A stretch of DNA of 64,000 bases from Candidatus Thorarchaeota archaeon. GTDB taxonomy: Archaea; Asgardarchaeota; Thorarchaeia; Thorarchaeales; Thorarchaeaceae. How positions within the stretch are numbered: position 1 is the stretch's first letter; each line of letters starts with the position of its first letter. The stretch spans positions 69,843 to 133,842 of the forward strand of contig JBHLRS010000005.1 in the NCBI GenBank assembly GCA_048882325.1, read 5' to 3'. The position numbers were made by a program, and so were the translations under genes. Under the pieces are notes generated by a model that saw only the letters and a list, made by a program, of their open reading frames with translations, made no database searches and was not told where the DNA came from. Below, piece by piece: positions 121 through 12,800 of this stretch.

Positions 121-3100
121 GTGTTGTACGGGATGGATATCCGAATTAGAGGTGCCTGTGAGAACAATCTCAAGTCAGTGGATGTCGATATAGGTGATGG
201 TCTGACTGTGGTCACAGGTGTTAGCGGATCCGGAAAAACTTCTCTTGTCTTTGACACACTATATCATGAAGCAAGGAGGAGGTTCCTGGATGTCTTTCGT
301 TCCAGTGGTACACGCTTCAGAATGCCGCCTGCGGACGTTAGGTCAATCAATGGAATAGGACCAACCATTGCTGTTGGACAAAACCTTCTCAACCTTAATC
401 CAAATTCCACCTTAGCCTCTGCCTCCGGACTACATCCATTCTTTCGATTACTCTTTGCGAGATTCGGAACCCGCTCCTGTCTGACATGCGGCACGGACCT
501 TCAGGTACTTACAGAGGATGAGATTGTAGGAACAATCAGACAGAATTTGAAGAAGGGCGCAGTTGAGGTCTCGTCTATCCTCATCCATCAGGCAAAGGGG
601 AGTCACAAGACACTCTTAGAACTACTAGTTTCAGAATTCGATACAAAACAAGTCATTGTTGATGGAACACTGTGGAATCAGAGGAAACTGCCGCCAAACA
701 AACCTCATGATATCTCGATACTTATTGGTAGATTTGACCAAGACACAGACACCTCTGAGCTTAGAGAAGCAGTGCAGACAGCGAGAGCTCTTGGTGCTAA
801 TTCGGTCACTATCATAGATGACATGTCCAGCAGAACGGTATCAATGAGCAGTATCTGTGCTCAGTGTGGAACATGGTTTGGTGAGGTTGAACCAAAGCAC
901 TTTGGGATGAAATGTATTCACTGTGATGGCAAGAGATGTGAGAAGTGTAAAGATACGGGACTTCATGAGAAAGCAGCCTCTGTGAAATGGAAAGGGATGT
1001 CTTTTCCAGAGTTGATGTCTCTGTCAGTTGCTGAGACTAATCAGCTCTTTGCGGACACGGATTTGCCGTCTACAGCAAAACGCCTTCAGACAGAGATAAC
1101 ACGTCGACTTGATGCGTTGATGACTGTAGGGTTGGACTACATCCAGCTTAATCGCTCATCTCCAAGTCTCTCACGGGGGGAGTCTCAACGTGTACGACTT
1201 GCAGTTTCATTGACGAGTCGTTTGGAGGACATTGTGCATGTGTTAGATGAACCCACAATTGGGCAGCACCCAGCAGATGTAGAACGATTGATGCCATCGT
1301 TTAGGAAACTAATGGGCCCAGTGATTTTTGTTGAGCATGACAGGGTTGCAGCAGCGCAGGCGGACCGAGCTATCGACATTGGACCCGGCGCGGGTCAGAA
1401 GGGTGGTGAGATTGTCTTCACTGGCACACCCGATGAACTCTGGAATGCACCCACAACTACTGGACAATTCTTCAGTCTGGAGAAACGAGTACCTACCTTG
1501 GAACCACGCGATCCGCCAGAGGAGTTCATCTCAATCAAGAAGGCAGTTCAACATAATTTGAAGGCAATAGATGTGGAGATACCCATTAGTCGCCTCACTG
1601 TGATCACTGGAAGAAGCGGATCGGGAAAGAGCACACTTGTAGAACATGTTCTGGTACCATCTCTTGAGAAAGACCAACCCATTGGGTGCAAGGGTATCAT
1701 GGGCAGGAAACTCAGTCCTGTCTTAGTAGATCAAAAGCCAATTGGCAAGAACCCAAGATCTAATCCAGGGACCTACACAAAATTGTCAGACATTGTGAGA
1801 GACCTCTATGCATCTGAAACAGGTTTCTCCGCATCTCACTTCTCATTTAATCGACCAGAAGGTGCATGTCCAACTTGCAGTGGGATGGGGGCTGTTGAGG
1901 TCAAAATGAGATATCTCCCATCAATCTGGATAACATGTTCCGACTGTGAAGGAAAGCGATTCAAAGAGGAGGTCTTGGAGTCTCAGGTTAAGTTTGGAGA
2001 TCTTGAACTCTCGATTGCGGATTTCTACAATCTCTCAATAACCCAGGTTCATTCCATTCTGTCAGAGGACTCACGACTCAGCGAGAGTAAACGGAAGTCT
2101 GCAAAGAGTATCCTTGACGCCCTGGTCACAGTTGGTCTTGGATATCTGAAGTTGGGACAGAGCAGTCCGAGCCTTTCGGGAGGGGAAGCTCAGAGGGTCA
2201 AATTGACCAAGTATCTCGGAAAGAAGTCGCTAAAGACAAAGTTGCTTATTCTCGATGAGATTTCAACTGGACTCCACCCTAGAGACCTGTTTGGCCTCCT
2301 CACTGTGTTGGACAGGCTCGTCAAAGAAGGAGCTACGATCGTTGTCGTAGAACATAACACAGACATCATCAAGTCAGCAGATTGGATTGTTGATCTTGGC
2401 CCCCTAGGAGGTCCTGCTGGTGGAGAGGTTCTATACTCAGGCCCTCCATCCGGTCTCCGTGATATTGCAGAGTCATATACAGCACAGGCATTGAAGAACG
2501 AGGAAAAAGTGAAACCTCGGAAAAAGCCTGTGAAGACCAACATTATGACTGATCTCATCAGAATCAAGAAAGCACGAGCCAACAATCTCAGGAACATTAG
2601 TGTTGATATCAAGAAATCAAAACTCACAGTTGTCACAGGTATTTCAGGATCGGGAAAATCATCTCTAGTCAGGGACGTCTTACAGGCTGAAGCTGAAAGA
2701 AGGTTCTTGGAATCACTTTCAGTCTATGAACGTCAAGGAACCAGCGAAGGTCCAGAAGCACCTGTTGATAGCGTGAGTGGTCTTGGAGTATCTGTGGCTA
2801 TCTCATCGCGCAGACGACGAGGCGCTGGTTGGTGGGCAGTTTATGAGACTCGTTCCACAGTTGGTTCGGTAACTGAGATTTCGCAACAACTCAATGTCCT
2901 ATACGCAGCAATCGCAGATCGGCTCTGCATGAAATGTGGAACACAGATGGTCCGTTCTGAGAAGTGGTCATGTCAGAAATGTGGTTTGGAACAGCCTCTT
3001 GCTAGTCCACGACTGTTCTCGCCAGCAGTTTATTTCGCAGCCTGCGGGAAATGTAGTGGTGTTGGTCATATCAACACACCAGCGGTCGAGAAACTCATCG

Positions 3101-5022
3101 TCGCACCTGACAAACCACTGTGCAAAGGCGCGATGTATTCTCCCGGTTATTACCCTGGCAAGTATTTTTGTGATCCAAAAAGCGCAGCCGCTGGATTGTT
3201 GATCGCTTTAGGGGAAAAACATGGATTCGATCCACACTCGACTCCTTGGAACGAGATGTCTGATGAAGCAAGAGATGTGTTTCTCTTTGGAGATTCAGAA
3301 AAACTAGCATACTCGTATCTGGGAACACATCGGGGCAAGAGGACGAGGGTTTCTGGCAAGGGAGCATGGCGAGGTTTTTACCGACTTGTAAGTGACTGGG
3401 ATGTTGGTCAGACGTTTACAACTCGCATCACCTGCGAACTATGCAATGGAACGGGTCTCAAGCAGGAATATCTTTCCTTCAAAATAAAGGGTTTCAATGT
3501 GCATGAGATGAAGGACAAGACAGTGAGTGAGCTACGCGAAGTTCTGGAAGACGTCGCAGTTCCAGAGTCAGATGCATTCTATGTATCAGACAATCTACAG
3601 ACAGCCCTCAAGAGGTTGAGGTTCTTAGAGCAGGTGGGTCTTGGTTATATTCATCTGAACAGACAAGCCATAACCCTTTCAGCCGGAGAATCTCAACGCA
3701 TTGTCCTCTCTAGTCTGTTAGGGAGCGGTCTCACATCACTCACGATTCTCTTGGACGAACCATCTCGAGGAATGCATCCCTCTGAAATTAACAGTCTGGT
3801 TCAGGCACTGCAGGAGCTGAAGAAAGAAGGCAACACTCCAATTGTTGTTGAGCATGACCTAGGAGTTATCATGGCGGCTGATGAGCTGATTGACATGGGT
3901 CCAAGAGCTGGGACTGGGGGAGGGAGGATTGTTGCAATCGGCAGTCCTACGGATGTGGCAAAGGGAGATTCTATCACTGCAAAGTGGTTGAATGGAGATA
4001 GGAGGATTGACATATCCGACAATGTGAGAACACCAATTGCATGGATGAAAATCAAAGGAGCAAGGGGTAATAACCTCAAGAATCTGTCAATCGACATTCC
4101 TTTGGGAGTCCTTGTTGGTTTTTGCGGAGTGTCTGGTTCAGGAAAAAGCACACTTCTAATTGACACACTCGCTCGTGCATTAGCTCCGAAGAAGTTCACA
4201 ACCTCAGTCGCATATGAGGAAATTGAACCTGAGGATTATGACAGGATTTCTGATTCTCCTGACAGTGTAATAGTACTAGATCAAGGTCGGAGAGGAATTC
4301 GTTCACCAGGACAGGCTTTGGGAGTCCTGAAATCACTAGTTGATGTATATGCTGACAGTGAGGATGCTGTTTCCCTTGGTATGGACAAAAAAAGACTCTC
4401 TGAGCCTTGTTCATTGTGTGAGGGCACCGGGCGGCTGCGGACTGACCTTGGGTTTCTACCAACAGTGTATACGACATGTGAGGTATGTAGTGGAAGTGGT
4501 AGGTCCCCCGAAACTTGGGATGTGAAGATGTTTGGTGTTTCTCTTCCTGAATTAAACAGTCTGACTCTGGGAGAGATATACGAACTCTTCAAGTACGATG
4601 AGCGTATCGAGAAAAAACTCCGACCTGCACTCGACGTTGGACTTGACTATCTTGTACTCAGACAACCAAGTTGGACTTTGTCAGGGGGAGAGATTCAACG
4701 GTTGAAGATAGCACAGGAGTTGACCAAAAAGACTCAGAAAGGTGCACTCTTCATCCTTGATGAACCCACTGTTGGTCAGCACCTCGAGGATGTTAAACGT
4801 CTGATTGAAGTGCTGCAACGATTAGTGACTGCTGGCAACAGTGTTTTTGTCATAGAACATCACCCACATGTCCTTGCCGCGTGTGACTGGTTGATCGAGC
4901 TTGGTCCAAGGGGAGGTCCGAAAGGGGGATACGTGATCGCAGAGGGGAGTCCGTGGGAAATTAGGAAAATGATGACGCCTACAGCTCCATATATACAAGA
5001 GGTTCTGGAGGGATTGTTATGA
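121..5022 (+). CDS. uvrA: Double-length (tandemly fused) UvrA-family ABC ATPase
   Basis: Four Walker A motifs (GVSGSGKT, GRSGSGKS, GISGSGKS, GVSGSGKS), four ABC signatures (LSRGESQR, LSGGEAQR, LSAGESQR, LSGGEIQR), four Walker B (DEPT/DEIS/DEPS/DEPT), UvrA-type GAxxNNLK starts, CxxC zinc fingers and FSFN motif. Start may be ATG at 133. Confidence 0.92.
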   Translation: MLYGMDIRIRGACENNLKSVDVDIGDGLTVVTGVSGSGKTSLVFDTLYHEARRRFLDVFRSSGTRFRMPPADVRSINGIGPTIAVGQNLLNLNPNSTLASASGLHPFFRLLFARFGTRSCLTCGTDLQVLTEDEIVGTIRQNLKKGAVEVSSILIHQAKGSHKTLLELLVSEFDTKQVIVDGTLWNQRKLPPNKPHDISILIGRFDQDTDTSELREAVQTARALGANSVTIIDDMSSRTVSMSSICAQCGTWFGEVEPKHFGMKCIHCDGKRCEKCKDTGLHEKAASVKWKGMSFPELMSLSVAETNQLFADTDLPSTAKRLQTEITRRLDALMTVGLDYIQLNRSSPSLSRGESQRVRLAVSLTSRLEDIVHVLDEPTIGQHPADVERLMPSFRKLMGPVIFVEHDRVAAAQADRAIDIGPGAGQKGGEIVFTGTPDELWNAPTTTGQFFSLEKRVPTLEPRDPPEEFISIKKAVQHNLKAIDVEIPISRLTVITGRSGSGKSTLVEHVLVPSLEKDQPIGCKGIMGRKLSPVLVDQKPIGKNPRSNPGTYTKLSDIVRDLYASETGFSASHFSFNRPEGACPTCSGMGAVEVKMRYLPSIWITCSDCEGKRFKEEVLESQVKFGDLELSIADFYNLSITQVHSILSEDSRLSESKRKSAKSILDALVTVGLGYLKLGQSSPSLSGGEAQRVKLTKYLGKKSLKTKLLILDEISTGLHPRDLFGLLTVLDRLVKEGATIVVVEHNTDIIKSADWIVDLGPLGGPAGGEVLYSGPPSGLRDIAESYTAQALKNEEKVKPRKKPVKTNIMTDLIRIKKARANNLRNISVDIKKSKLTVVTGISGSGKSSLVRDVLQAEAERRFLESLSVYERQGTSEGPEAPVDSVSGLGVSVAISSRRRRGAGWWAVYETRSTVGSVTEISQQLNVLYAAIADRLCMKCGTQMVRSEKWSCQKCGLEQPLASPRLFSPAVYFAACGKCSGVGHINTPAVEKLIVAPDKPLCKGAMYSPGYYPGKYFCDPKSAAAGLLIALGEKHGFDPHSTPWNEMSDEARDVFLFGDSEKLAYSYLGTHRGKRTRVSGKGAWRGFYRLVSDWDVGQTFTTRITCELCNGTGLKQEYLSFKIKGFNVHEMKDKTVSELREVLEDVAVPESDAFYVSDNLQTALKRLRFLEQVGLGYIHLNRQAITLSAGESQRIVLSSLLGSGLTSLTILLDEPSRGMHPSEINSLVQALQELKKEGNTPIVVEHDLGVIMAADELIDMGPRAGTGGGRIVAIGSPTDVAKGDSITAKWLNGDRRIDISDNVRTPIAWMKIKGARGNNLKNLSIDIPLGVLVGFCGVSGSGKSTLLIDTLARALAPKKFTTSVAYEEIEPEDYDRISDSPDSVIVLDQGRRGIRSPGQALGVLKSLVDVYADSEDAVSLGMDKKRLSEPCSLCEGTGRLRTDLGFLPTVYTTCEVCSGSGRSPETWDVKMFGVSLPELNSLTLGEIYELFKYDERIEKKLRPALDVGLDYLVLRQPSWTLSGGEIQRLKIAQELTKKTQKGALFILDEPTVGQHLEDVKRLIEVLQRLVTAGNSVFVIEHHPHVLAACDWLIELGPRGGPKGGYVIAEGSPWEIRKMMTPTAPYIQEVLEGLL

Positions 5023-6056
5023 CTTGGGTTCCTCTTCTGCTAGCGGACAGGTCTCCCAGCCTTCGTTACTTGGTTCTCACGGAGCTACTAGGTCGAGATC
5101 CTGAGGATACAGAGGTTCAAGAGCTCAAGAAACTCAGAAGCGAGGATGCATTAATTGCCACACTCATTAGCCTTCAGAAAGAAAAAGGTAACTGGAAGAA
5201 TCTAGATCAAGCAGGGTATACTATTGGGGGTTCTGTGAGAGCAACAAGTGCAGCACTCATGCGACTAGGTTACCTAGGATTGGGAAACGACAATCCAGTT
5301 ATCGAGAGAGCTGCAGAGTATCTTTTCTCGAAGCAACGAAAAGATGGATCATGGCCACTCCCTGAGAGGGTCTCTGATTATGAATTTACACAAGGTCCTT
5401 ACACAATGACACCCGTCCAGACATCGATCCCACTTCTTGGACTAGTCATGTGTGGTTATGGTGGAGATCCACGTGCAGAGCTGGCCTTCGATTGGCTGAT
5501 GGAAAAACGCAATGATGACGGGACATGGCCTGCTGGTAAGGTGGGAGAGGTCAATGTGCGGATTGCAGGATATAGAAGACTCTCACATTCAAAATTAGGT
5601 TGTCGGACAAACACAACAAATGCACTCCTTTGTCTGGCATATCACCCAGTACGACGGAGAAGTTCAGAGGCACGTCAGGCACTTGATCACCTTCTTGGTA
5701 GGGAAACCCGAGAGCGAAACAACCTTGGATTCAATGTTGCGAGATATATCGGAGTGGAACCTCATCGGGGAGCTCTGACATATCATGCCAAGTTCGATCT
5801 CGCATTGATTCTTGATATCTGTTCAAAGGTCGGTGCCAACCGATCCGACCCACGAGTCGAGGACCTTATCGATTGGATTTTAGAGCAGCAAGGACAGTAC
5901 GGTCTGTGGGAGTACACACCACATCCGGAAGTTACTCGCTGGATTTCTTTTGACATACTTAGGACACTTGGCAAAATTGATGACTCAACGGATTGGATCA
6001 GCACTAAAAAGAGGAAACACTTTGCAGCTTATCCACACAAAAAGAGACGGTTCTAG
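5019..6056 (+). CDS. Prenyltransferase/squalene-oxidase-repeat (alpha/alpha barrel) protein
   Basis: Repeated Q/R-xx-DGxW motifs (LQKEKGNW, KQRKDGSW, KRNDDGTW, QQGQYGLW); ATGA overlap with uvrA stop. Confidence 0.7.
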   Translation: MTWVPLLLADRSPSLRYLVLTELLGRDPEDTEVQELKKLRSEDALIATLISLQKEKGNWKNLDQAGYTIGGSVRATSAALMRLGYLGLGNDNPVIERAAEYLFSKQRKDGSWPLPERVSDYEFTQGPYTMTPVQTSIPLLGLVMCGYGGDPRAELAFDWLMEKRNDDGTWPAGKVGEVNVRIAGYRRLSHSKLGCRTNTTNALLCLAYHPVRRRSSEARQALDHLLGRETRERNNLGFNVARYIGVEPHRGALTYHAKFDLALILDICSKVGANRSDPRVEDLIDWILEQQGQYGLWEYTPHPEVTRWISFDILRTLGKIDDSTDWISTKKRKHFAAYPHKKRRF

Positions 6057-6109: not shown

Positions 6110-6427
6110 ATGAGTATTCAGGATAAGTTCGAAGACGAAATGAAGGATATCTGCTCAGAGTATGCAAACTTACTCAGGCAGAAGAAACTGATTGATGAGC
6201 AGTTGGAAACGCTTCATGACTATCTCGAGGTCACCATGCGTAAGTATGATAAAGATGAGTACGATGACCCAAAGATTCCAGTGGTAGTAGACAAGATAGT
6301 CTATACAAGTGAAAGGATGAGAAAGGGAGGGAAAATCAAACTCAAGGAGATACTAACTCCAAAACAATGGACTGAGATCTACAAAGAAAAGGAGGTTGTC
6401 AGTTACAGGGTTTCACTTCGAGAATAG
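6110..6427 (+). CDS. Small charged coiled-coil hypothetical protein
   Basis: ORF 6056-6427; ATG at 6110 after GGGAGAG is the likelier start; Lys/Glu-rich helix then beta-rich tail. Confidence 0.7.
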   Translation: MSIQDKFEDEMKDICSEYANLLRQKKLIDEQLETLHDYLEVTMRKYDKDEYDDPKIPVVVDKIVYTSERMRKGGKIKLKEILTPKQWTEIYKEKEVVSYRVSLRE

Positions 6428-6440
6428 AGAGATGGTGTTG

Positions 6441-6965
6441 ATGAGTGTTAATCGAATTGCAGAGCATCTTATCGACCAGTTCAACAGAAGTTGGAAGATG
6501 CTGCGACAAGCTATTGAAAACGTGCCAGAGGAGAAATGGACTGAACACGTCGAATCCATTGACGTGCCCTGGAACGAAACAAAAGGAATGAATGTCTGGT
6601 ATTTTTCAAATATCGTCTATCATGTCATACAAACGGTCGAGTTCTACGCTTTGGATGATCCTGATGACATGAGATGGGGACATAGGATTGGTGGGATTGA
6701 TTGGAAATCAGAGAGTCCAGAGGTGACATCATCGAAAATCAAGAAGAATGACATGCTTGAATATATGGAGGAAACTATGACATTCTTGAATGATAAATTG
6801 AGGTCCTTCTCAGAGGACGAAATGTTTGAGGCAGATGGGTTTAGTGGATGGCAAGACTCTCGTTTGATGAAGTTCGTCTATACTCTACGACACAGTATGT
6901 GGCACATAGGTGAACTTGGTAGGTCCTTGAGAAACTTTGAGTGTAATCGAATCACATGGCATTAG
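6441..6965 (+). CDS. DinB/YfiT-family four-helix-bundle metalloprotein
   Basis: N-terminal QFxxSWxMLxxAIxxVPEEKW, first His in IVYHVIQ and C-terminal RHSMWHIGEL (HxxxH). Confidence 0.8.
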   Translation: MSVNRIAEHLIDQFNRSWKMLRQAIENVPEEKWTEHVESIDVPWNETKGMNVWYFSNIVYHVIQTVEFYALDDPDDMRWGHRIGGIDWKSESPEVTSSKIKKNDMLEYMEETMTFLNDKLRSFSEDEMFEADGFSGWQDSRLMKFVYTLRHSMWHIGELGRSLRNFECNRITWH

Positions 6966-7095
6966 ATATTAGATGATGTGCTAGGTACAATCATGGATTG
7001 ATATCATTTCCCTTCTTTCTCTTCATAAACAGGCACACAAGTAGATACTAGGTTTGATAAGGAGTCTGAGGTTAAGTTTGATGAGGAGAAATAAT

Positions 7096-8169
7096 ATGGC
7101 GAGATATGAGTTGGAGAATAAAGCAGACTTTGTCCCAGCTTGGATATCATATCTCTCAACAGCAACAGGGATTCTGAAGGCGCTGGGAGTGAAAACGGAT
7201 CTTGTTGATGTTGGTGGTTACACTGGGTATGCATTTCATCTTAACACTGCAGAACACTCAACGTGTCCATCCGCTCCAACTGTAGCTCCCTTTGACAAGT
7301 TCTCTGAAGGTTTGGAATCATTCGGGTGGAAAATAAAGCAAACTTGGGACAGACCAGGCAAGGATTATAGCCCAAGTGACAATGAAAAGCAGAAAGAGAG
7401 AGCAAGGAACTACTTTTCAGAGGTTAAAGACACTATCAGGAAAACTGGAAGACCTATCGGGATCTGGGGGATACCTGAGATACCGGAGTTTGGTATTGTA
7501 AATGGATTTGATGATGATAATTACATTGTGAGCACATTTCGAAGTCTACCACACATTCCTGTGGATGATAGTCCAATACATCACTTGAATCTAAATGCGC
7601 CAGGTGGTCTCTTCAAGATGGTCTTCGGTGATTCCTTTAAGGCTAGGGGTGATGTGATTCGAGATAGAGAAGCTGTTGCTCGAGGTATTTCCATAGCCAA
7701 GGGTCTGGAGAAAGTTGAGGGATACATTTCAGGACCAGAAGCATTTGATGACTGGGCAAATACATTAGAAGAAGGGATTGTCGCTGGGTCAGAGAAAGAA
7801 AGCAAGGATATGAGGGGAGCAACCCAACTTATGTACCATGGAAACGCGTATGTAGCGCAGTGTACACAAGAAGGTCTTAATCTTGCGTCTGTTTTCCTAG
7901 AACGATTAGCGGATAGACATAGGAACCATTCATTTAGCAAGAACCTAGCCAAAGCCTCAATTGAATATAGGAAAGCTGCAGTTGCGATGCAGGATTTCAC
8001 TGAGTTATTCCCATTCAGCCATGATAAAGACTGGAAGCCTGATGAGTTCCCAGATGATAAAAAGCAGAAAGGAGCTAGAAGTCTAAGGAATGCCAAACCT
8101 CATGTTGAATCAGCTATTCAGCATATGGAAGATGCACTGAAGATGTGGAGTAAGAAACCTCTCAATTGA
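7096..8169 (+). CDS. Hypothetical protein, BtrH-like (papain-like N-domain plus helical C-domain)
   Basis: GYTGYAF...CPSAP, PEFGIVNGFDD and SGPEAFDDW segments resemble BtrH-type proteins; start ATG 7096 after GAGGAG. Confidence 0.5.
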   Translation: MARYELENKADFVPAWISYLSTATGILKALGVKTDLVDVGGYTGYAFHLNTAEHSTCPSAPTVAPFDKFSEGLESFGWKIKQTWDRPGKDYSPSDNEKQKERARNYFSEVKDTIRKTGRPIGIWGIPEIPEFGIVNGFDDDNYIVSTFRSLPHIPVDDSPIHHLNLNAPGGLFKMVFGDSFKARGDVIRDREAVARGISIAKGLEKVEGYISGPEAFDDWANTLEEGIVAGSEKESKDMRGATQLMYHGNAYVAQCTQEGLNLASVFLERLADRHRNHSFSKNLAKASIEYRKAAVAMQDFTELFPFSHDKDWKPDEFPDDKKQKGARSLRNAKPHVESAIQHMEDALKMWSKKPLN

Positions 8170-8287
8170 TACTCTCTTGAATGCGCAAAGGATTCAGGTA
8201 CCTCTGAATGTCCTCAATCAACTCGGTTTTACTGAGAGAGGTAAACTTTACACAGAGTTCTTGCAAGCGTCGATAGGTGGTAAGCCA

Positions 8288-9073
8288 TTGAGTGATGCTT
8301 CAATCAGAATAGCTCCAGCAGAACTTGAAGATGCTGAAACTCTTACAGACATCTGTATCAGAGCGTTTCATAGTGATATTGATTTTGGGACAGATGGGGA
8401 AGGTGGCCCCCCGGGTTACGACTCTGTTGATTGGAACGGACAACGAATCGTAGGGAAATTTGTTGACTACTACAAAATTCTGCTTGATGACACCATTGTT
8501 GGAGGATTCATCTCAGGCTGGAGGAGGACAGGATATAATGTCTGCGAGCGAATATATGTTGATCCTGAAACACAGAGAGAAGGAATAGGTAGTCGCACTT
8601 TCGAACTCATATGGGACCGCTATCCAAGAGCTCAGAGGTGGACACTTGGGACTCCGGAATGGAACACTCGAACTAAGAACTTCTATGAGAAGGTCGGGTT
8701 CACTCAGATTGGATTCACATATGATGTACCAGACTGGAGAGGTCGTTTTTATGAAAAGATCGTGTCTAGTGAGAGTCCCCTACAGGTCACAGCAGACCTT
8801 GAGGAGGGGATGAATAGAGTAGTCATTGATGGGGAGATAAGAAACCTGTCATCGACAAGAGAGGTCCGCTCGAGGTCTGGAGATCCGCTCCAAGTAGCAG
8901 AAGCAGAGTTGGTCGATGATGAAGGCTCAATATCGCTTGTGCTTTGGAATGAGCATATACGTCAGGTCAATTCTGATAGAGTGCGAGTGGAAAGCGGGTT
9001 TGTCAAGAGGTATAGAGACAAATTGCAATTGAGCATAGGAAAGTGGGGTCTAATTATCTCATTAATTTCATAA
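8288..9073 (+). CDS. GNAT acetyltransferase fused to SSB/RPA-type OB fold
   Basis: GNAT motif A (IYVDPETQREGIGS) and motif B (NTRTKNFYEKVGF); C-terminal ~95 aa (DLEEGMNRVVIDGEI...VAEAELVDDEGSISLVLWNE...RVESGFVKRYRDKLQLSIGKWG) match the crenarchaeal SSB/RPA OB pattern. TTG at 8288 after GGTGGT is the probable start (ORF opens at 8177). Confidence 0.8.
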   Translation: MSDASIRIAPAELEDAETLTDICIRAFHSDIDFGTDGEGGPPGYDSVDWNGQRIVGKFVDYYKILLDDTIVGGFISGWRRTGYNVCERIYVDPETQREGIGSRTFELIWDRYPRAQRWTLGTPEWNTRTKNFYEKVGFTQIGFTYDVPDWRGRFYEKIVSSESPLQVTADLEEGMNRVVIDGEIRNLSSTREVRSRSGDPLQVAEAELVDDEGSISLVLWNEHIRQVNSDRVRVESGFVKRYRDKLQLSIGKWGLIISLIS

Positions 9074-9111
9074 TGAGTGACAAAGAATAGAGGATTGTGA
9101 GCTGATCATAA

Positions 9112-10341
9112 ATGTTTGAGGTACCGATTGAAAAGGCTCGGAGATTCATCCTTGATGTACAAGGTCTCAGAACTTCAAAACCCTGTAAGTCTGTGATGGA
9201 TGTAGCTAATCGTATTCACAACATCCAGATAGATACAATATCTGTAGTTTCACGTAGCCATAACCTTATCACCTTCAATCGATTCCCGAACTACAAGGAA
9301 GGAGATATCTGGAAGCTTCAGAAAGAGGGAAAGCTATTCGAGTATTGGTCCCATGCGGCATGTCTAATGCCGATGGAAACATATCCGTTCTACGCTTGGA
9401 GGAGGTCATTCTTCCCAGAGGAACTATGGGATTCTTTCAGAAAGTGGGGTGAAGAGAATAAGGAGGTCATTGAAGAAGTATACAAGAAAGTGAAGAAAGA
9501 GGGTGTAATCAATAGCGCCTCTGTAGGAGAACGCAAGACAAAGTCAAGCGGATGGTGGGATTGGAAGATTGAGAAACGAGCTCTTGAGTATCTCTATACT
9601 AATGGAAGACTAATGGTTGCATATAGAAATAACTTCCAGAAGCATTATGACTTAGCAGAGAGGGTTATCCCAGCAGGTATCAGCACAGAACCTCTGACGG
9701 ATGATGAAGCTGCAGAATTTCTTTTGGACACAATATTGGGTTCCCTGGGTCTTGGCAGTCAGATGGATATGAAGTCGTATCTCGGTAGACTTCCAGCTAG
9801 GAAACTATGGAATGGCAAAAAGTCAGAGATAGAATCATTTCTTGAGCAAAAAATGAATGAGGGACGCATTGAGGAGGTCTCAATCGAAGGCATGAATGAA
9901 CGATTCTTTATTCATAAGAATCATGAGAAACGATTGAGGTCGATTGCTATCTTACCACAAGAAGAGGACCCAGTTAAGTTTCTGAGTCCCTTCGATAATA
10001 TAGTCCGTGAGAGACACTATCCTGGGCAGATGTGGAATTTTGAATACAAGATTGAATGCTATGTACCTGAACCTCGGCGAATCTATGGGTACTTTGTTCT
10101 ACCGATTCTTGATGGGAATAATCTTTCTGGCAGGATGGATGCAAAAGTGCATCGTAACACTGGGGTTCTAGAGATCAAGTCTTTGTATTTAGAAAAAGAA
10201 ACCATCCAGAAGGAGATGGGCCTTGATCGTTTCAGAAGAGGTGTTGTTGACTTCGCAGAGTTCCATTCATGCGAGGAAGTAAAGGTGGGTAAAGTGAGTC
10301 CGAGGAAGTCAACTAACACTGTCCGTTCACTCTTCACTTGA
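9112..10341 (+). CDS. ycaQ: YcaQ/AlkZ-family (HTH_42) DNA interstrand-crosslink glycosylase
   Basis: IQIDTISVVSRSH (QxD catalytic motif), FEYWSHAAC, GWWDWK, LSPFDN, YKIECYVP...RIYGYFVLPIL. Confidence 0.9.
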   Translation: MFEVPIEKARRFILDVQGLRTSKPCKSVMDVANRIHNIQIDTISVVSRSHNLITFNRFPNYKEGDIWKLQKEGKLFEYWSHAACLMPMETYPFYAWRRSFFPEELWDSFRKWGEENKEVIEEVYKKVKKEGVINSASVGERKTKSSGWWDWKIEKRALEYLYTNGRLMVAYRNNFQKHYDLAERVIPAGISTEPLTDDEAAEFLLDTILGSLGLGSQMDMKSYLGRLPARKLWNGKKSEIESFLEQKMNEGRIEEVSIEGMNERFFIHKNHEKRLRSIAILPQEEDPVKFLSPFDNIVRERHYPGQMWNFEYKIECYVPEPRRIYGYFVLPILDGNNLSGRMDAKVHRNTGVLEIKSLYLEKETIQKEMGLDRFRRGVVDFAEFHSCEEVKVGKVSPRKSTNTVRSLFT

Positions 10342-10344
10342 GGA

Positions 10345-11028
10345 CTATATCTTCTTAGAACCTTCACGAGCGACTAACTTGGTCATTCTAGCTTGATTCT
10401 TTTCATAGTACGACCTAATTAGTTCCGGGTCACGCTTACTCAACTCGCGTAAAACCCATCCAGCAGCTTTGCCCACAAAGAACTCGTCATCCGATATGTG
10501 GGGAGTGACTGCCTCGAGAATCTTGTTGTTGTATTCTGGTTTATACTGGGACTTCAATGCAAGATGAAGGAATGGTAAGACTGAGGCTCTTCGGCGCCAG
10601 AAGTTGTCAGAAACTCGCCAAGATCGTAAGACAGCCTCTACTCTTTCATCACGTAAAATCATAGAACCAATAGTAGGAGAACAAAGTGGATCAATTAATC
10701 CCCAGGTGTCAGCATCACTGACCCACTTGTCTGCTAAGTCTAGAGCTGTCTCAATGGACCCTTTCTTCGCGTAAACCTTCAAGATGTCAATTGCTGCAAG
10801 TCTAATTTCAAACGATTCATCCATCCAGAGAGCTCTCATAATGCTAGGGAGTTCTCCAAGGCCCAAACCTTTGATGATTCTTTTCACTATCCTGTGTATC
10901 TCAGGAAGTTCCACTCCTATGAAGTTCAGTGAGGAGGTCTTCATGTATTCTGCGATCTTTTCTTTGCGTTCTGCCTTTCCTAGAGTTCTGAGTTCCTTGA
11001 CGATATTTTTCACAATTTCTCCAGACAT
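10345..11028 (-). CDS. AlkD-like HEAT-repeat DNA alkylation repair protein
   Basis: FIGVxLP, DTWGLIDPLC, SDNFWRRRAS, DDEFFVGKAAGWVLRELSK motifs. Confidence 0.85.
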   Translation of the reverse strand: MSGEIVKNIVKELRTLGKAERKEKIAEYMKTSSLNFIGVELPEIHRIVKRIIKGLGLGELPSIMRALWMDESFEIRLAAIDILKVYAKKGSIETALDLADKWVSDADTWGLIDPLCSPTIGSMILRDERVEAVLRSWRVSDNFWRRRASVLPFLHLALKSQYKPEYNNKILEAVTPHISDDEFFVGKAAGWVLRELSKRDPELIRSYYEKNQARMTKLVAREGSKKI

Positions 11029-11140
11029 AGTCAATCAATCTACGTGGTTGGATTTAATCATAATCATGGATATGTTCGATTCCGATATCCAACAGAAATT
11101 GAATTAAATGTCGAAAACATCATTCTCAGCGAGGATTATC

Positions 11141-11741: not shown

Positions 11742-11767
11742 AGTATGAGGAGGACACTCCTCATACT
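11742..11767. terminator. Perfect 11-bp hairpin between convergent genes
   Basis: AGTATGAGGAG-gaca-CTCCTCATACT between the stop at 11731 (+) and the stop at 11767 (-). Confidence 0.6.
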
Positions 11768-12800
11768 CATGCTTTTTCTAGAAGATATCTCATATCAGCT
11801 TTCTTGAATCTCAAGAATGCTCTCGTTCCAAATTCTCGATTGAGTTCGGTTCCATATGAACTGAGTAGCTTTAGAGAATCAAGACCTCCAAGATCCCTGT
11901 GGAAGGATACATGCAGATAGTAACCCGGTTGTTTTGCTCCTCGTAATTGTTCTCGCAACCAACCAACAGGTGTGATCAGTTCAGATCTGTCAACGGGTGC
12001 AAGTTTCAATTCTCCATAGATTCCAACCTTTGATAGTATTCCCAACCATCTTGTCCAAACGCCCTCAGTTGTCGTAAATCCGGAGGTTCCTTTCTTATGA
12101 GTATAGATCGTGATGGAATCCACAGTGAGAGATTCTCCATCTAGCTTGCCATAAGCAGCCAAGATCCATAATGTTCGATTTAACAGAGAACTTCGTCCTT
12201 CAAGCATCTCCTGTCCCGCTATTGTATCTATGTCTGAAATCCTTAGACTTGATGTAAGAATCTGCGAAAGAACATTGTGAAGTGTTTTGTATTTCATATA
12301 CTTCTTTTTTACATCAGGAAACGGCACAATCTTTGGGTGTTTCTCCTCGACAGTTTTGACCTCTTGAATTTGACTAGGACTCAGATTCTCTTTGATATCA
12401 TCAAGTGTCTTCATGCCCTCAAAGATTCTTATGTATGCTTGATATTTGTCATCAGGAATATGGTTACCTATTCTTCTCTCTGCATCCGCACGACTGTTGT
12501 TGATGTTCTGTATCATGATCTTGTCACATAGATATCGTGAGCAATAGGCACAGTTTCGCACCTCCGTGCAGAACAACTCCGAAGGAAATTATGTACACCC
12601 ACATCCTTTGATAGATTCTCATTGGGAGTCTGACATCCATGGCACGGATTCTTAGTTGGTGAAAACCCTACATACTTCTTCACATCTTCAACATAGGAAG
12701 CCCATTCATCTTCACTTTGTTCTCTCCGAACCCACACACCCCATGGGCAGCTGGAACACATATTGCCACATTTGCTAATGACTGGCTTCACTGTTATCAT
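11767..12800 (-). pseudogene. DUF3795-type Cys-rich protein, frameshifted
   Basis: ORF 12513-12800 gives KCGNMCSSCP...CHGCQ...SCSARRC; the continuation NCAYCSRYLC is in a different frame (ORF 11767-12576); break near 12555-12565. Confidence 0.7.

Follow-up and report, generated by a model that had tools for sequence, protein, structure and literature searches.

What would an archaeon gain from an acetyltransferase that carries its own OB fold, of a type known from proteins that bind single-stranded DNA (ssDNA)? The question is raised by a gene in a 64,000-nucleotide stretch of a Candidatus Thorarchaeota genome (GenBank assembly GCA_048882325.1, contig JBHLRS010000005.1, forward-strand positions 69,843 to 133,842; "the window" below is this stretch at its full length), whose predicted product joins an N-terminal GNAT domain to a C-terminal OB fold and is here called GNAT-OB. 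The window comes from a metagenome-assembled genome (MAG) of a Thorarchaeota-type Asgard archaeon (3.6 Mb, 93% completeness). The fusion proved to be genuine, with selection acting on each of its halves, and GNAT domains of the same subfamily stand beside genes for DNA lesions in archaea and bacteria. A role in the response to genotoxins or DNA damage is proposed below as a tentative reading of these neighbourhoods.

The gene was taken as positions 8288-9073 of a larger open reading frame (ORF; 8177-9073, plus strand), with its start at the TTG codon at 8288, the same point at which its homologues and the database record P0002 (a 261-amino-acid product 100% identical to the window protein) begin. 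An earlier note on this DNA, made from the letters alone, had described a complete GNAT domain joined in frame to an OB fold, and this description stands: residues 1-160 and 170-259, respectively, lie in one ORF of 261 amino acids. That the fusion might be unique to this assembly, as the note had cautioned, is contradicted by a protein search that returned 429 clusters across several archaeal phyla. The best 120 of these were nearly all full-length (260-270 amino acids) and came from Thor-, Hod-, Hermod-, Loki- (Promethearchaeota) and Sif-archaeal MAGs. Among species-representative genomes, 120 loci were found, including many from Bathyarchaeia, Theionarchaea and Heimdallarchaeota, and the ESM Atlas held three clusters of 56, 104 and 56 members, all from Archaea, with the Pfam family PF21473 on 92-95% of members. 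A second copy, 45% identical, is present in the genome of the window itself (contig 3, 102970-103743, minus strand; L002/L065; here and below, G numbers denote compared genomes, with G000 being that of the window, L numbers compared loci and g27 a genus). Read support across the domain junction, which the note had proposed as a check, came from Logan contigs of two sediment studies (four runs, some of which may be the source of the window's assembly); these contigs covered positions 7900-9500 with 0 differences and bridged the junction. An assembly chimera is thus ruled out by the homologues in several archaeal phyla together with the junction-bridging contigs.

The distribution of the fusion is patchy, with a match at 1e-20 in 44 of 201 sampled Asgard genomes, which fits an accessory gene and not a core replication or chromatin factor. 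The tree mixes phyla and places Bathyarchaeia in two separate clades, as would fit an accessory, mobile gene. Two GNAT-OB sequences came from MAGs labelled as bacterial (L112, Krumholzibacteriaceae; L121, Patescibacteria). Since both fall inside Bathyarchaeia clades, they are probably mis-binned contigs; L112 is nearly identical to Bathyarchaeia sequences. Three homologues with in-frame stops (TAG, TGA), namely L062 (G130, contig 13), L010 (G098) and L009 (G158), may be decaying copies or sequencing errors. The second copy in the window's genome lies downstream of a gene with an RNase III domain and is convergent with a gene for a 485-amino-acid protein, which we take from its sequence to be an HD-domain protein; this context was not common to its closest relatives.

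By both score and fold, the N-terminal half is a member of the GNAT superfamily. It matched the Pfam families Acetyltransf_7 (PF13508, 3.8e-10, 40.4 bits against a gathering threshold of 27) and Acetyltransf_1 (PF00583, 1.6e-7, 32.0 bits against 20.7), and residues 1-160 of the predicted structure superposed on many small GNATs, including CBU0801/RimI-like, Ard1, RimI, PaiA and ArsN, with Z scores of 13-15.5 and a root mean square deviation (rmsd) of 1.6-2.7 Å, with no clear winner. Residue conservation was counted over 88 family members. Within the acetyl-CoA pyrophosphate-binding loop (Table 1), G99 was kept in 84 and glycine or alanine at position 101 in all 88, as was N126. Y133, likewise invariant, occupies the position that we take, from general knowledge of GNATs, to be that of the general-acid tyrosine. 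Together, the invariant Y133 and N126 are consistent with acetyl-CoA-dependent activity.

Two further motifs set this half apart. The subfamily signature consists of F-x-x-D...GGPPGYD in the alpha1-alpha2 loop and (D/G)TPEW(N)xR(T/N)xxFYE in the beta5-alpha4 region, represented in the window protein by G39-G-P-P-G-Y-D45, T122-P-E-W-N-x-R-T129 and F132-Y133. The GGPPGYD and TPEWNxRT motifs were common to GNAT-OB members and to standalone GNATs, and on these motifs the GNAT half can be regarded as a distinct, unnamed subfamily. In GNATs, the alpha1-alpha2 loop lines the acceptor site, and its near-invariance here suggests a single, defined class of acceptor. The solved small GNATs PaiA (1tiq, polyamine), RimI (5isv, 2cnm, 9mto), Ard1 (4pv6, 4r3k), 2q7b, 3fnc and 8osp share the fold, the acetyl-CoA loop and the catalytic-type tyrosine with the GNAT half (Z 13.7-15.5; profile matches of 1.8e-11 to 2q7b and 1.9e-10 to PaiA), but are only 15-20% identical to it; none carries the GGPPGYD or TPEWNxRT signature and none is fused to an OB fold. 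The standalone GGPPGYD GNATs of Asgard archaea, Chloroflexota, Gaiellales (Actinomycetota), Paenibacillus and others belong to the same subfamily, with 33-45% identity, the same motifs and similar neighbours (UvrA-like, AlkD, Fpg and GyrI-like regulator genes). They differ in lacking the OB fold (150-190 amino acids) and are named only "GNAT family", "RimI-like" or "RimJ/RimL".

Several named families were considered for the GNAT half and rejected. Membership of the RimI/Ard1 family was dismissed at 26.2 bits against the TIGR01575 cut-off of 86.4, with a fold likeness no better than that to unrelated GNATs, and membership of PaiA/SSAT at 20.6 bits against 250 for NF053587, the subfamily profile matching PaiA (1tiq) only at superfamily level. 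A TacT/AtaT-type toxin does not fit the locus, where the neighbours are the 357-amino-acid BtrH_N-like protein and the 409-amino-acid AlkZ-like glycosylase and no small antitoxin is adjacent. The RNA cytidine acetyltransferase TmcA/NAT10 tethers a GNAT to a nucleic-acid module, with a helicase-type ATPase and a tRNA-binding domain in about 700-1000 amino acids. The tethering of a GNAT to a targeting domain is therefore a known principle that GNAT-OB has in common with TmcA/NAT10, but in its 261 amino acids Pfam found only a GNAT and an OB fold, with no helicase-type ATPase or tRNA-binding domain, and assignment to that family was rejected. Asgard GNAT histone acetyltransferases are named in a preprint (10.64898/2026.07.02.735847); the GKGLMS motif of its LoHAT2 at 106-111 mismatches the GNAT-OB family, and the preprint mentions no OB or SSB domain.

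The C-terminal half is predicted, from its fold and its aromatic triad, to be an OB fold of the SsoSSB/hSSB1 type. Pfam matches in the window copy were slightly under gathering for Ssb-like_OB (PF21473, 21.0 bits against 24) and also under it for tRNA_anti-codon (PF01336, 19.3 bits against 27, 1.1e-3), while the second copy of the same genome scored above gathering for PF21473 (36.3 bits) and reached 29.6 bits for PF01336. The family thus qualifies for PF21473, and the divergent window copy falls narrowly short. The NCBIfam archaeal SSB model NF005049 matched residues 169-256 (4.3e-13), phmmer reached SsoSSB (1o7i/2mna) at 1.4e-4, and a profile of 16 OB domains found SsoSSB at 1e-16 (profile residues 4-93), followed by an RPA-related protein of M. 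thermautotrophicus, RPA of P. abyssi and human SSB1. An AlphaFold2 (AF2) model of the OB domain alone, with a predicted local distance difference test score (pLDDT) of 93.7, is a five-stranded barrel matching hSSB1, OB-1 of P. abyssi RPA and SsoSSB (TMq 0.85 and rmsd 1.9 Å against 1o7i). Its best matches were 5d8f, 4oww and 8aa9, and nearly all of the best 40 were ssDNA-binding OB folds.

In SsoSSB, residues W56, W75 and F79 stack on the bases of ssDNA and RNA (PMC5346138), and these align with W220, F238 and Y242 of the window protein. Position 238 was Y, F or H in 83 of the 88 members and position 242 was Y or F in all of them. The aromatic OB motifs that the earlier note had pointed out are indeed present (SLVLWNEH and ESGFVKRYRDKLQLSIG) and are the segments that align to this triad. 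Compared to SsoSSB (1o7i, 2mna, 7wcg) and hSSB1/SOSS-B1 (5d8e, 5d8f, 4oww), GNAT-OB has a single OB of the same subtype with the triad kept, but here the OB is attached to an enzyme at its C-terminal end; the protein ends (...GLIISLIS) 2 residues past the OB fold, and the flexible acidic tail of free SSBs is missing. A canonical archaeal SSB was rejected for this reason, the OB being fused to an enzyme, and on score (49.7 bits against 188 for the NCBIfam PRK06461 equivalogs). RPA1/replication factor A was rejected as well, as there is a single OB without a zinc motif and RPA models reached 21-29 bits against cut-offs of 362-1147. Separate RPA/SSB-like genes are present in the window's genome.

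For the whole protein, an AF2 model built on 23 homologues had a pLDDT of 92.4, a predicted template modelling score (pTM) of 0.87 and a linker pLDDT of 94-96, so that the linker and the domain interface are predicted with confidence. No solved PDB chain among the structural matches spans both domains. The source databases name the homologues "GNAT family N-acetyltransferase" or, wrongly, "replication factor A1" (the JGI name for many), and the combination is visible in automatic annotation yet appears unstudied. We found no paper on a GNAT-OB or GNAT-SSB fusion in the full-text literature and no characterised protein built in this way, in keeping with the earlier note, whose author model knew of no characterised protein of this architecture.

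The note had also placed GNAT-OB directly upstream of a crosslink glycosylase. An AlkZ-like gene, with the Q-I-D motif in ...HNIQIDT..., does begin 38 nt 3' of GNAT-OB, and because the spacer holds no T-run, co-transcription of the two genes is plausible. The adjacency itself is peculiar to the window's genome. When the window neighbours were searched by tblastn at about 100 other GNAT-OB loci (flanks of up to 10 kb), AlkZ, AlkD, the DinB-like gene and the upstream 357-amino-acid gene were next door at none of them, which rules out a conserved GNAT-OB/AlkZ operon; at one Bathyarchaeia locus (L135), a QW-barrel gene and AlkZ lie 6-8 kb from GNAT-OB. There is a link to DNA-damage genes, and it runs through the GNAT subfamily and its UvrA, AlkD, Fpg and GyrI-like neighbours, not through the AlkZ adjacency.

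Among Asgard archaea, the recurrent partner is a double-length UvrA, an orthologue of which was present in about 40 of the 201 sampled genomes besides the canonical UvrA of about 950 amino acids. GNAT-OB lies 3.3 kb downstream of it in the window. In G176 (L070), GNAT-OB begins 10 bp past a UvrA gene, the N-terminal part of which is found at the end of another contig and is 65% identical to the window's double-length UvrA. In G161 (L067), it follows a 122-amino-acid UvrA remnant and an ArsR-HTH/GyrI-like regulator, and the GNAT-OB gene of G130 with the in-frame TAG (L062) also stands beside UvrA. Standalone Asgard GNATs (170-190 amino acids, 36-41% identical to the window's GNAT half, with the same motifs) lie 2-7 kb from double-length UvrA orthologues (55-63% identity) in nine g27 genomes and in G196, which belongs to another family. 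Taking members with and without the OB together, the subfamily occurs beside a double-length UvrA in five Asgard genera. Within g27, the standalone GNAT starts 3 bp after an ArsR-HTH/GyrI-like (Cass2) regulator, with DUF3795 and BtrH_N/DUF4872 proteins beside it; the regulator was seen directly upstream at L153 (4036-5525), L152 and L156. In G196, the neighbours are a DUF3795 protein, Fpg/Nei and DUF4332. In the main Thorarchaeota clade, the most frequent neighbours of GNAT-OB were an MFS transporter gene, convergent at a distance of about 6 bp (13 loci), and a PEMT/ICMT-like membrane methyltransferase (16 loci). Across the 201 Asgard genomes, double-length UvrA was found in 25 of 44 with GNAT-OB and in 18 of 157 without (Fisher p 2e-9), a statistic confounded by shared ancestry and given little weight.

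The same kinds of genes recur around standalone members elsewhere, at 80 bacterial and archaeal loci gathered with a six-sequence alignment. At nine Actinomycetota loci (Gaiellales and others; L167-L175, at about 8001-9170), the GNAT gene overlaps the start of an AlkD gene (PF08713, 4.9e-57), which suggests that the two are translationally coupled. The overlap is of a few bases, and a 2-oxoacid dehydrogenase E1/E2 operon lies upstream and cupin and lipoate ligase genes downstream. At five Chloroflexota loci, a GyrI-like gene is found just upstream of the GNAT (L176, L185, L232 and L240 are among the loci with this arrangement), with an HTH-WYL-WCX regulator nearby; here and with the ArsR-HTH/GyrI-like regulator in g27, the regulator-type gene and the standalone GNAT look like a conserved sensor-enzyme pair. 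A UvrA-like gene is near the GNAT in L195 (Armatimonadota) and L217 (Chloroflexota) and about 3 kb away in L234 (Chloroflexota), while Fpg/Nei is adjacent in L208 (Methanomassiliicoccaceae) and 2-6 kb away in L204 and L215 (Anaerolineales). Many of the linked loci are kin, and the independent associations with DNA-lesion genes number about 6-8. As the UvrA, AlkD, Fpg and GyrI-like families each have only few copies per genome, we roughly estimate that chance would give well under one adjacency per 80-100 loci.

The candidate targets listed in the note, which are proteins of repair or chromatin, tRNA, damaged bases and amine drugs bound to DNA, span a broad range. Our preferred reading, to which we give a probability of roughly 40%, makes GNAT-OB an accessory enzyme in the response to genotoxins or DNA damage: recruited to ssDNA, it would N-acetylate a DNA-binding compound that bears an amine, or the adduct of such a compound. 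This reading rests on the observed architecture, residues, distribution and neighbourhoods, from which we infer ssDNA binding, catalysis, the logic of recruitment and the acceptor. In this scheme, ssDNA at lesions or repair intermediates in these sediment archaea would recruit the protein; the OB fold, with its putative base-stacking aromatics, would hold the enzyme on ssDNA or switch it on there; and the GNAT domain (acetyl-CoA loop, N126, Y133) would transfer an acetyl group to an amine of the compound or its adduct. We arrived at this reading because the GNAT subfamily adjoins UvrA-like, AlkD, AlkZ, Fpg/Nei, GyrI-like and WYL genes and efflux pumps. The UvrA-like DrrC is part of sets that confer resistance to genotoxins. 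GyrI-like proteins, AlkD- and AlkZ-type glycosylases, efflux pumps and N-acetyltransferases are established elements of multi-level genotoxin and antibiotic resistance (PMC9854587; PMC9040887; PMC8626424), and AlkD/YtkR2-type and AlkZ-type glycosylases, GyrI-like domains and efflux act in resistance to DNA-damaging natural products (the same papers and PMC7367128). The gene kinds of bacterial self-resistance sets (an efflux pump, the GyrI-like YtkR7, the AlkD-type YtkR2 and AlkZ) are those that surround the GNAT subfamily, but no biosynthetic cluster lies near GNAT-OB, whose host is an uncultured Thorarchaeote, and the self-resistance papers (PMC9854587, PMC9040887, PMC8626424) describe no GNAT-OB or GGPPGYD-type GNAT component.

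Several observations weigh against a genotoxin-response enzyme. At most of the roughly 100 GNAT-OB loci, no repair gene was present within 8-10 kb and the gene content of the surroundings varies, and the kinship among several of the linked loci leaves perhaps only the 6-8 independent associations given above. Among the nearest solved GNATs, enzymes that acetylate protein N-termini (RimI, Ard1), polyamines or antibiotics all score alike (Z 13-15.5), so that no preference for a small-molecule acceptor can be read from the fold. It is also not obvious why a small-molecule detoxifying enzyme would need an ssDNA anchor.

An alternative explanation is that GNAT-OB is an ssDNA-tethered protein acetyltransferase that modifies lysines or N-termini of RPA/SSB, histones, Alba or UvrA and thereby tunes repair or chromatin access. 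We regard this as possible, if somewhat doubtful. The model of the GNAT half fits Ard1 (4pv6, Z 15.3; 4r3k, 13.7), RimI (5isv, 14.8) and NatA/Naa50 equally well, rimI was the best-scoring acetyltransferase model among the NCBIfam matches (6.9e-6), and the DNA-repair neighbourhoods would suit a protein target too. In Sulfolobus, Alba and SSB both receive an N-terminal acetyl group from Ard1. In eukaryotes, acetylation of RPA regulates repair (PMC10287905; PMC12182300), a parallel that likewise speaks for a protein acceptor. The rimI match is far under its cut-off (26 bits against 86), however; the GyrI-like regulators of drug-sensor type and the MFS and ABC transporters nearby point to small molecules; the conserved, closed-looking GGPPGYD loop matched no known peptide-binding GNAT; and the patchy distribution would be odd for a regulator of core proteins. 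We consider a small compound or adduct the more likely acceptor. The OB fold could also bind single-stranded RNA or tRNA, and the acceptor of the GNAT would then be an RNA base, a protein bound to RNA or an aminoacyl-tRNA. The aromatic face of SsoSSB serves in RNA binding as well (PMC5346138), the weak PF01336 match of the window copy is stronger in the paralogue, and the latter adjoins the RNase III-like gene. Such an RNA target seems improbable to us, as the OB resembles SSB/RPA far more closely than the anticodon-binding OBs of synthetases, the protein lacks the kind of helicase or THUMP-type domain known from TmcA/NAT10, its neighbours include no small antitoxin-like gene of the sort paired with TacT/AtaT, and DNA-repair genes recur among the clustered neighbours where RNA-processing genes do not.

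A nucleobase could itself be the acceptor if the OB threaded ssDNA past the GNAT site, where the exocyclic amine of a normal or damaged base would be acetylated. The rigid two-domain model (pTM 0.87) with its base-stacking OB would suit the presentation of a flipped base, and the gene stands beside base-excision enzymes in several lineages. Against this, no earlier case of a small GNAT with DNA bases as its substrate came to light, and the standalone members keep the active-site motifs and the neighbourhoods without any nucleic-acid-binding domain, so that the acceptor is probably not the DNA polymer itself; we hold this explanation to be very improbable. Hardly more credit is given to a broader form of it, in which the OB would feed ssDNA or RNA into the GNAT site for acetylation of the exocyclic amine of a base or base adduct, alongside base-excision and UvrA-type repair; no precedent was found for a nucleic-acid N-acetyltransferase of that sort on DNA. 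It is also unlikely, in our judgement, that GNAT-OB is an ordinary housekeeping GNAT, with an OB for oligomerisation or for docking on OB proteins and a repair context that is coincidental in variable islands. Most loci do show no repair neighbour, islands of accessory genes accumulate unrelated stress genes, and OB folds mediate protein contacts in RPA too. But the three base-stacking positions are kept in 83-88 of the 88 members across phyla, neighbours of the UvrA, AlkD, Fpg and GyrI-like kinds turn up repeatedly, with varied gene orders, in phyla of two domains that are unrelated to each other, and families with so few copies per genome would, by the rough estimate above, seldom meet a GNAT by chance.

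The island around GNAT-OB has a conserved core and a variable part (Table 1). Orthologues of the UvrA, 51-79% identical and accompanied by the QW protein, occur in other Thorarchaeota, and the pair is conserved at 55-79% identity in at least five of these genomes (L162-L166); the QW-repeat barrel is squalene-cyclase-like, and the QW homologue in L129 matched SQHop_cyclase_C. Two genomes of the same genus, G146 and G087, have the island with the double-length UvrA, the QW-barrel, g6056, AlkD, a membrane protein, DUF3795 and ABC genes, without the four genes at 6396-10341, so this four-gene block is peculiar to the window's genome. The DUF3795-type gene of the window matches homologue residues 2-64 in one frame and 85-339 in another, with the switch near 12561-12627, whereas it is a single frame in L152, L162, L163 and L158; the split reflects either a frameshift (pseudogene) or an assembly error. 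In other Asgard genera, intact DUF3795 homologues adjoin the standalone GNAT and the double-length UvrA. The 357-amino-acid protein encoded upstream of GNAT-OB is part of an unnamed family with about 80 clusters, roughly half of which are fused to an N-terminal ArsR-type winged helix-turn-helix (440-480 amino acids). Its predicted fold resembles C-terminal domains on many bacterial HTH regulators, and Atlas feature similarity of 0.86-0.87 to BtrH_N/C39-like proteins provides a lead; it is possibly a ligand-sensing or BtrH_N/C39-like domain. In BLASTP, this protein matched none of the BtrH_N/DUF4872 and DUF3795 proteins encoded in the other islands, and PADLOC gave no anti-phage match for the GNAT-OB gene or its four upstream neighbours.

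Table 1 Features of the GNAT-OB gene and its surroundings, in window positions.
Feature	Position	Strand	Basis or remark
GNAT-OB fusion gene	8288..9073	+	261 amino acids, TTG start, TAA stop
GNAT acetyltransferase domain (residues 1-160)	8288..8767	+	Pfam, fold match, motifs
Putative acetyl-CoA pyrophosphate-binding loop Q96-R-E-G99-I-G101 (Q/R-x-x-G-x-G/A)	8573..8590	+	sequence
Codon Y133	8684..8686	+	Y in 88/88
Predicted SsoSSB/hSSB1-type OB fold (residues 170-259)	8795..9064	+	NF005049, SsoSSB profile, OB model
Codon W220 (aligned to SsoSSB W56)	8945..8947	+	alignment; W in 88/88
Codons F238 to Y242 (aligned to SsoSSB W75, F79)	8999..9013	+	alignment
Double-length UvrA (1633 amino acids) overlapping QW-repeat alpha/alpha-barrel protein (345 amino acids)	121..6056	+	conserved island core
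Four-gene block: DinB-like, ArsR-partner/BtrH_N-like protein, GNAT-OB, AlkZ-like	6396..10341	+	Pfam, island comparison
DinB-like gene	6396..6965	+	Pfam
357-amino-acid ArsR-partner/BtrH_N-like protein	7096..8169	+	Atlas features
AlkZ/YcaQ-like glycosylase, 409 amino acids	9112..10341	+	PF06224, 1.9e-48
AlkD-like DNA alkylation repair protein, convergent	10345..11034	-	PF08713, 7.1e-49; also in the island of G146 and G087
DUF3795-type gene, frameshifted	11767..12800	-	30% identity, E 1e-26 to L158

If GNAT-OB does bind ssDNA and carry out acetylation at that site, it would represent a prokaryotic case of an acetyltransferase directed physically to ssDNA, and would offer a simple model of how acetylation is tied to DNA damage in the archaea that are related to eukaryotes. 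Many members carry the name "replication factor A1" in the databases, which is misleading and is corrected by the present result. The fusion alone is a moderate curiosity, and the link of its GNAT subfamily to DNA-lesion genes may prove more useful. The subfamily tracks UvrA-like, AlkD, AlkZ, Fpg and GyrI-like genes in archaea and in bacteria, including cultured Paenibacillus. The response to genotoxins or alkylation damage may thus include an enzymatic step that has so far gone unrecognised and that would be accessible in tractable organisms.

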